From IMG/VR virus record IMGVR_UViG_2718217862_000001: DNA of 41,292 nucleotides; one strand, given 5' to 3'. Numbering within the stretch: position 1 is the stretch's first letter; the number at the start of each line of letters is the position of its first letter. Origin of the DNA: a virus (Duplodnaviria > Heunggongvirae > Uroviricota > Caudoviricetes). The position numbers were made by a program, and so were the translations under genes. Shown in pieces: positions 36,395 to 36,962 of this stretch. The notes below the pieces were generated by a model. The model did not search any database. It was not told the DNA's origin and worked only from the letters and a program-made list of their open reading frames with translations.

Positions 36395-36735
36395 TAGATA
36401 ACCAACGAAGCTAAGGTTGGTAATTAAGGAGTTCTCCACGGGTGAGGTGGAGTGCGTGCGCCGGACACGGGTGAGCATCCGGCACTGACAGTTTACTGAA
36501 AGGATATTTCCCTGAAAAGTCAGACCATAACGCGAAAGCGCACGGCGAGGTAGCTGGTTCATAGATAGCCTGTCGTTAAATTTTCGTCGACCGTGCGCTT
36601 CCGGTTGTGGCAATCCGCGAAATGGCGCGGCGGTAAGTATGGCGGGGTTATTCCTTCCCCCGTTGAGGACACCGGGTTGTCAGGTTGACCATACGCTTAA
36701 GTGACAACCCCACTGCAACGCCCTCTGTTATCAAT

Positions 36736-36793
36736 TTTCTGGTGACGTTTGGCGGTATCAGTTTTACTCCGTGACTGCTCTGCCGCCCTTTTT
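36736..36793 (+). ncRNA. dicF: DicF small RNA
   Basis: UUUCUGGUGACGUUUGGCGGUAUCAGUUUUACUCCGUGACUGCUCUGCCGCCC + U-tract matches recalled DicF; lies upstream of dicB. Confidence 0.7.
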
Positions 36794-36962
36794 AAAGTGA
36801 ATTTTGTGATGCGGTGAATGCGGCTAAGCGCACGCGGAACAGTTAAAACCAAAAACAGTGTTATGGGTGGATTCTCTGTATCCGGCGTTAATTGTTAACT
36901 GGTTAACGTCACCTGGAGGCACCAGGCACCGCATCACAAAACTCATTGTTGAGGGCGCGATA

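Follow-up and report, generated by a model that had tools for sequence, protein, structure and literature searches.

DicF and DicB are textbook prophage regulators of cell division in Escherichia coli. Processing of the small RNA (sRNA) DicF in the dicBF operon of the K-12 prophage Qin has been reported since 1990 (Faubladier et al. 1990, as cited in reviews), and more recently ribonuclease III (RNase III) was confirmed to be required for the 190-nt species of DicF and RNase E for its 53-nt species (Ragunathan et al. 2023). The 3′ end of a further, 72-nt, species is made by RNase III on the full-length mRNA (Faubladier et al. 1990, according to reviews), and a transcriptome-wide comparison of the wild type with an rnc mutant contains a known RNase III-dependent site at K-12 position 1649470, designated “dicF-dicB”. 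No description of the fold of the 190-nt leader or of the family of the helix downstream of DicF was found in the accessible dicBF literature. Two other prophage sRNAs, STnc100 and PasD, are known to be associated with Hfq (Zhu, Shabalina and Storz 2026 preprint). The stretch studied here, referred to as the window, is 41,292 nt of DNA from a virus of the class Caudoviricetes (IMG/VR record IMGVR_UViG_2718217862_000001). It represents a Qin-like lambdoid prophage, and the spacer between ydfC and dicB, which is the subject of this study, sits in its early-left (PL-type) operon. All positions are those of the window and, unless the minus strand is given, of its plus strand.

The spacer is 100% identical to that of a prophage of E. 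coli 4/2-1 and of the induced phage vB_EcoS-813R8, and the region is matched in 4730 of 5426 complete E. coli genomes. Since the part from 36520 to dicB is ~99% identical to E. coli K-12 MG1655, the experiments performed with K-12 are applicable here. An earlier note, made from the letters of the window, had proposed that repeats in this spacer look like processing or translation-control structures. The first half of this proposal is right and largely known since 1990, as both large repeats match published RNase III ends; translation control found no support. Quite probably the 570-nt spacer is an untranslated modular RNA-processing cassette, in which RNase III and RNase E partition one transcript. 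What is new concerns the family identity of the downstream helix, a conserved pseudoknot domain in the DicF precursor and a modular architecture common to Rac-like prophages and phages P1 and P7.

Probable processing of the ydfC-dicB transcript

DicF with its intrinsic terminator occupies positions 36736–36793, as the earlier note had it. The Rfam family RF00039 matches 36737–36788 with 76.7 bits against a gathering score of 48, covering model positions 1–52 of 52, and alignment with K-12, where the annotated length is 53 nt, places the RNA at 36736–36788. The terminator, lying between ydfC and dicB, consists of a GGCGG..CCGCC stem followed by UUUUU at 36789–36793; a simple terminator scan misses it on account of its long loop, which is a limit of the scan.

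The 10-bp inverted repeat AAGCGCACGG/CCGTGCGCTT (36536–36545 and 36591–36600) noticed earlier proved to be the core of an imperfect long hairpin of 22 pairs with small bulges, extending from 36525 to 36610. A bare perfect inverted repeat of 10 nt turns up in 7% of 300 dinucleotide shuffles of the spacer, which served throughout as the measure of chance for repeats. Across 19 distinct homologues 91.6% of the alignment cells of this hairpin are paired, versus 28–45% with partners slid along the alignment, and compensatory changes were registered at 5 pairs. U-G wobbles, which become A-C mismatches if read on the other strand, are frequent, and since such pairs are specific to the plus strand, selection acts on the plus-strand RNA rather than on DNA. 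Stx2c-type, Rac-type and other prophages carry long hairpins of different sequence at the same place. Counting 190 nt back from the 3′ end of DicF (36788–36792) leads to 36599–36603, that is, into the 3′ strand of the hairpin, and because the 5′ end of the 190-nt species maps there, 36525–36610 can be taken as the upstream RNase III site. Judged from the published K-12 fragment lengths, the 10-bp inverted repeat is thus the known upstream site.

The second large repeat is the perfect 13-bp inverted repeat TTGTGATGCGGTG/CACCGCATCACAA, present at 36804–36816 and 36927–36939 as had been claimed. It extends to 15 perfect bases and, at 95% complementarity, to 19-nt arms (36798–36816/36927–36945); perfect inverted repeats of 13 nt or more occurred in none of the 300 shuffles. 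The region 36798–36945 folds with z = −5.3 (−5.5 for its K-12 counterpart; −5.1 for the 581-nt leader as a whole), and the helix counts 19 bp in both cases, of which one is mismatched here and two are G-U pairs in K-12. From the 5′ end of DicF the 72-nt species reaches position 36807 (36736 + 71), inside the 5′ arm of the helix extension. Both published ends of DicF species, 36599–36603 and 36807, are therefore found within inverted-repeat arms, and both large helices comprise about two turns of double-stranded RNA, as is required of an RNase III site.

Along a transcript from the operon promoter the hairpin 36525–36610 would be followed by the pseudoknot domain (36604–36719), DicF with its terminator, the domain closed by the long helix (36798–36945) and the ribosome-binding site of dicB. 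RNase III cutting in the first hairpin would produce the 190-nt precursor composed of the pseudoknot domain and DicF, from which RNase E, cutting at ~36735/36736, would release the 53-nt DicF. The sequence GUUGUGG (36604–36610) is shared by the 3′ base of the hairpin and, as its 5′ strand, by the helix that closes the next domain, so that the two structures are mutually exclusive, and cleavage in the hairpin may free this strand to close the pseudoknot domain. Where transcription continues past the DicF terminator, RNase III would cut the lengthened stem at ~36807/36808, giving the 72-nt DicF, with a partner cut on the other strand at ~36937/36938 (the usual 2-nt stagger). This second cleavage is expected to separate DicF from the dicB message, to release a core of ~130 nt with a remaining closing stem of 8–9 bp, and to leave dicB mRNA with a leader of ~25 nt. 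The products would then be the ydfC message, DicF isoforms, the core RNA and the dicB message. A new ~130-nt RNA is, consequently, predicted from the K-12 dicBF operon, and both RNase III sites, as parts of larger conserved RNA domains, become mutable targets for studying how the ratio of sRNA to toxin is set.

Several points weigh against this scheme. The site of the genome-wide comparison, K-12 1649470, maps to ~36824 of the window, 17 nt away from the proposed cut, the resolution of the method being unclear. The cleavage coordinates were derived from fragment lengths given in secondary sources, not from the published “813/814” numbering. Ragunathan et al. detected no transcripts extending into dicB. 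The second cut, the release of a stable core RNA and the refolding of the pseudoknot domain are steps that we infer. Finally, cleavage by RNase III explains the extension of the stem, but not the presence of an elaborate conserved four-helix core.

The downstream helix and its STnc100/PasD-type core

The nature of this core was estimated with covariance models. In a permissive Rfam scan 36800–36940 was matched to STnc100 (RF02076) with 38.8 bits and E = 2e-6, below its gathering score of 47. The match comprises the core only, positions 21–154 of 206; positions 155–206, the terminator and seed part, are unmatched. A scan with the motif CACCNGGAGGCNCCNGGCACC collected ~90 distinct elements with one architecture throughout. 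The closing helix (helix P1) ends in GGUG/CACC and is linked by AAU to a GC hairpin whose loop is UNNGCG; after a variable arm there come a hairpin that differs in sequence between elements (helix P4), UCACC and the invariant hairpin CCGGG-AGGCA-CCCGG. The segments GGUGAAU and UCACC-GGGAGGCACCC-GGCACC are strongly conserved, and helix P4 retains at least 6 bp in 55 of 70 elements by means of 46 different stems. In the family 91% of cells are paired, versus 41–47% with slid partners, 102 cells are changed on both sides, and none of 500 shuffles reached the observed covariation score.

For our own covariance model 26 cores were used, with all dicB- and kilR-linked copies left out. It matched 36807–36936 with 74.4 bits (E = 4.5e-19; positions 1–119 of 119), a canonical copy in the same window with 74.5 bits and the K-12 copy with 67.7 bits, and the copies of phages P1 and P7 were found too. 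By these models the 13-bp repeat belongs to the closing stem, here lengthened, of an STnc100/PasD-type domain (36798–36945) that is supported by covariation and is present in E. coli K-12 as well. This identity was not found in the accessible dicBF papers or in the PasD/STnc100 preprint.

Lengthening of the stem is limited to copies located behind a DicF-like terminator. In 40 such copies the uninterrupted closing stem has 10–21 bp, versus a median of 8 bp in 90 others; it has 9 bp in phage P1 and ~22, with one bulge, in the kilR-linked form. The extension of helix P1 is kept by compensatory changes (U-A to G-C, A-U to G-C, C-G to U-G to U-A), and K-12 differs in the core of helix P1 at two positions, both preserving pairing as G-U. 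The surroundings of the copies also vary. An intrinsic terminator follows the core in 61 of 87 STnc-type contexts, 32–126 nt (mostly ~45–58 nt) past the motif, with holin or esterase genes next. Between 36945 and dicB no terminator was found. Copies of the same subtype stand 19–32 nt, as measured from the conserved motif, upstream of dicB or of a gene for a presumed KilR-like protein, and in P1 and P7 they are ~31–35 nt upstream of tciA/terB.

One can assume that the core itself is a trans-acting RNA, either an Hfq-bound sRNA or a sponge of DicF, for which RNase III would be a means of biogenesis. Such a role is compatible with the processing cassette, but we consider it rather unlikely. The association of STnc100 and PasD with Hfq agrees with it, as do the strong sequence conservation of the two segments just described and the family-typical length of the stem that the proposed cuts would leave. 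The DicF 5′ seed GGUGACGUU (36741–36749) is, furthermore, perfectly complementary to AACGUCACC (36905–36913), which is composed of the 3′ strand of helix P4 and the invariant UCACC. In a region of this length, however, chance alone should produce about one inverted match of 9 nt, and other DicF alleles and seed mutants occur next to an unchanged core; a DicF sponge acting through 36741–36749/36905–36913 was rejected since no covariation with these alleles or mutants was seen. The copy near dicB is also devoid of the terminator and seed part of STnc100, through which Hfq-dependent sRNAs usually act, and there is no family member with a known function.

Two complete STnc100 copies are encoded in the late operon of the same window (minus strand: 26596–27253, 27607–27679 and 27823–28644), together with a Q-type antiterminator gene and a tRNA. 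Their scores are 138 and 132.5 bits, and a terminator stands at the end of each. A third, weak match to the core was registered at 26889–26997 (18 bits, E = 0.004); it has a terminator of its own at 26875–26856 and is followed by a DUF1737-like and a holin-like open reading frame (ORF). Altogether 12 terminator-like sites were counted by the scan versus 1.9 expected.

Proximity of the long helix to dicB makes it necessary to consider the 13-bp repeat as a translational operator, with the helix or a linked structure masking the ribosome-binding site until it is processed or melted. The Shine-Dalgarno sequence GAGGG (36951–36955) and the ATG (36963–36965), as read from the sequence, come shortly after the helix, which ends 17 nt before the start codon and 6–10 nt before the Shine-Dalgarno sequence. 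The global minimum free energy (MFE) structure pairs CGCCCUC (36719–36725) with the Shine-Dalgarno region GAGGGCG, and the leader of the lambda N gene, where an RNase III-sensitive structure inhibits translation, offers a precedent. Nevertheless both the Shine-Dalgarno sequence and the start codon are outside the helix, and the pairing with CGCCCUC, the sole long-range one that could mask the Shine-Dalgarno sequence, was discarded for want of covariation among homologues: in most dicB-linked loci the unchanged upstream CGCCCUC is combined with GAGGACG, and where the upstream sequence differs, the Shine-Dalgarno sequence stays the same. The same core also precedes unrelated genes with different leaders. 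Folding and covariation across dicB-linked loci thus gave no evidence for sequestration of the dicB ribosome-binding site, and an operator function seems quite improbable. The dicB frame itself is open for 35 codons upstream of the ATG (36858–36962), beginning with a GTG at 36858, within the RNA domain. Because the match to Pfam DicB is confined to the 62-aa form and homologues differ in the length of the domain's variable arm, this extension is probably not translated.

The pseudoknotted domain of the DicF precursor

A conserved RNA domain with a pseudoknot, module D (36604–36719), makes up the body of the 190-nt precursor. Covariation supports a fold composed of the closing helix P1 (36604–36611/36712–36719), a GC hairpin P2 (36615–36630), the pseudoknot (36637–36642/36689–36694), a variable hairpin P3 (36643–36665) and a 9-bp hairpin P4 (36674–36682/36702–36710). 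A pattern scan of viral contigs yielded 70 distinct versions. In this set 95.3% of cells are paired, versus 33–55% with slid partners, double changes are observed at 8 pairs, and the covariation score was reached by none of 500 shuffles. No Rfam family matched 36604–36719 in the Rfam scan.

According to BLAST, the segment 36604–36727 travels alone, being found in Stx2c phages and in the leader of the ban operon of phage P1, where the annotation calls a stretch overlapping module D a “dicF-like region”. In all 118 unique contexts a T-run is located 30–130 nt 3′ of module D, and the sequences examined there contain a short variable DicF-like seed with a terminator hairpin. At least 8 different alleles of the seed were distinguished behind the conserved scaffold, so that the seed diversifies while the scaffold is retained. 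One of these alleles (GGCGGUACCAG..CUGGUACCG with a U tract), together with its downstream sequence, follows two different 5′ domains, namely the pseudoknot domain in an Stx2c phage (L003, 2503–2660, plus strand) and an STnc100-type core in a viral contig (L006, 3638–3450, minus strand). Occurrence of the same allele behind both shows that the two domains are exchangeable. In the ban-operon leader of phage P7 a tRNA-Sec-like match (L002, 2304–2388, plus strand; 46.6 bits versus a threshold of 47) was noticed ~110 nt upstream of the P7 STnc100-type core.

There is some possibility, though a distinctly low one, that module D and the STnc100-type core are cis regulators of terminator read-through, acting as put-like antiterminators or as sensors of a ligand or factor and in this way setting the ratio between the sRNA and the toxic gene. 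The T-runs behind every copy of module D and the terminators, with holin or esterase genes beyond them, behind most STnc-type cores would suit this role. Phage P1 has module D and a strong terminator directly after the ban promoter, with tRNA genes, tci genes and ban annotated beyond that terminator in the same orientation. Several copies per phage are present in different operons, and the coexistence of terminator-type and RBS-adjacent arrangements (the latter next to a ribosome-binding site) is a mix typical of cis-regulatory RNAs. Put of phage HK022 is similar in being a structured RNA in lambdoid early operons, placed upstream of terminators that need read-through, and differs in its size of ~70 nt with two stem-loops. 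Homology with it was rejected, since neither Rfam STnc100 nor our model had a match in the HK022 immunity region (27.4–30.2 kb, E up to 1–10), no converse search with a put model being made. Other data disfavor read-through control as well: the copies upstream of dicB, kilR and tciA/terB have no terminator after them, no alternative pairing was found that would join either domain to a terminator or a Shine-Dalgarno sequence, and for the late-operon copies read-through is already explained by the Q antiterminator gene upstream of them.

In its broadest form this idea makes the pseudoknot domain and the STnc100-type core two interchangeable classes of cis-acting domains, gating read-through ahead of terminators and toxic genes in lambdoid and P1-like phages, with STnc100, PasD and the 190-nt precursor as terminated by-products. 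We regard this generalization as a long shot; if true, it would mean a widespread phage riboregulator gating genes of cell-division inhibitors and of lysis. With the processing cassette as the preferred explanation, the data point to a shared modular design composed of an RNase III hairpin, a structured 5′ domain, a swappable seed with its terminator, a second structured domain and a kil-type gene, and tie the formation of DicF to the ban-operon leader of P1 and to STnc100/PasD, a family without an explained function.

Genomic setting and relation to described systems

On the plus strand the genes follow in the order repressor (LexA/CI-type, 34813–35451 in the ORF table), ydfC (36176–36394, by annotation of the identical prophage in RefSeq), the 568-nt untranslated spacer, dicB (ATG at 36963; Pfam DicB, E = 5e-40, and RefSeq annotation of the identical prophage), ydfD and an exonuclease gene. 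The ORF table contains no plus-strand frame of 60 aa or more within the spacer, in agreement with the earlier note. Hidden protein genes were considered and dismissed: minus-strand frames of 84, 51 and 181 aa belong to no Pfam family, and length differences in the variable parts of the structures are not multiples of three.

Small elements at the beginning of the spacer behave differently from the two large repeats. Directly after the ydfC stop codon the hairpin ACCAAC-N9-GTTGGT (36398–36424; repeat 36401–36421) is indeed present, with ACCAAC at 36401 and GTTGGT at 36416. It is weakly stable (MFE −7.7 kcal/mol, z = −2.9), substitutions among homologues do not compensate one another, and other prophages have another hairpin, ACCCUC..GAGGGU, in this position. 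The next segment, 36425–36483, consists of a Shine-Dalgarno-like TAAGGAG (36425–36431) and two hairpins (36434–36452 and 36460–36483), both of which carry the decamer CACGGGTGAG reported before. The first copy is at 36437–36446 as reported; the second is at 36466–36475, 1 nt away from the previously given 36465–36474. The loop of the first hairpin is only GGGUGAG, the CAC of the decamer being in its stem; the loop of the second is CACGGGUGAGCA. A direct repeat of 10 nt arises in 11% of shuffles, and the decamer hairpins fold no better than shuffled sequences (z = −1.05). They form a narrow, nearly invariant family, accompanying the downstream modules in 60 of 70 contexts. The check for covariation across homologues was negative for the ACCAAC hairpin and for the decamer hairpins alike, and neither these small hairpins nor the repeated decamer can be told apart from chance or plain sequence conservation.

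A mini-ORF of 10 codons, from GTG at 36442 to TGA at 36474, runs from the first decamer into the second, with the strong TAAGGAG 10 nt ahead of its frame. Its few variants contain no frameshifts, and synonymous and non-synonymous changes both occur, the variation being too small to judge. One more predicted hairpin, CUGAC..GUCAG around GGAUAUUUCC (36486–36527), separates the decamer hairpins from the RNase III hairpin in the global MFE structure.

One further assumption would be that the repeats of the spacer are not RNA structures at all but chance matches or elements acting in DNA, for example in recombination or as palindromes bound by proteins. Chance could indeed yield the small hairpin, the decamer repeat or the bare 10-nt inverted repeat, each taken singly, and mosaic breakpoints are located at 36415, 36437, 36455 and 36515. 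The 13-nt repeat, never matched by shuffles, is at odds with this assumption. So is the presence, in each of the three large structures, of compensatory substitutions and of G-U pairs that the opposite strand would show as A-C mismatches; the arms are 45–110 nt apart and enclose further conserved helices. The assumption is therefore highly improbable.

Some other features of the window deserve mention. A promoter-like site, TTGACC-17-TAAACT, was found at 35536–35564. An ORF for a 68-aa zinc-ribbon protein (35883–36089, minus strand), named ECs_2282 family putative zinc-binding protein in RefSeq, lies antisense in the operon leader, downstream of the repressor gene and upstream of ydfC. A match to the sok antitoxin RNA (30678–30853, minus strand; 112 bits) indicates a hok/sok-type module in the nin-like region, and an ALIL frameshift pseudoknot at 1–72, cut by the start of the window, belongs to an IS3-family element at its edge.

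Among described systems the K-12 Qin dicBF operon is the closest, sharing the order ydfC-dicF-dicB and, from 36520 to dicB, ~99% of the sequence, so that the same species of 190, 53 and 72 nt are expected here. It differs in that the prophage of the window has a LexA/CI-type repressor instead of dicA/dicC and is devoid of ydfA and ydfB. With STnc100 (RF02076) and PasD the dicB copy shares helix P1 ending in GGUG/CACC, AAU, helices P2 and P4 and the block UCACC-P5(GGGAGGCACCC)-GGCACC. Unlike them, it scores below the family gathering threshold, has no terminator or 3′ part of its own and is embedded in an operon between a terminator and a start codon; its helix P5 is CCUGG/CCAGG instead of CCGGG/CCCGG, a compensatory replacement, its P2 is of the GCG type, and its closing stem is lengthened to 19–22 bp. 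In the PL operon of phage lambda RNase III sites (in the N leader and sib) lie beside the start or end of regulatory or toxic genes and split polycistronic RNA. The dicB helix resembles them by placement and differs from them in closing a larger conserved domain and in having an sRNA as the neighboring product.

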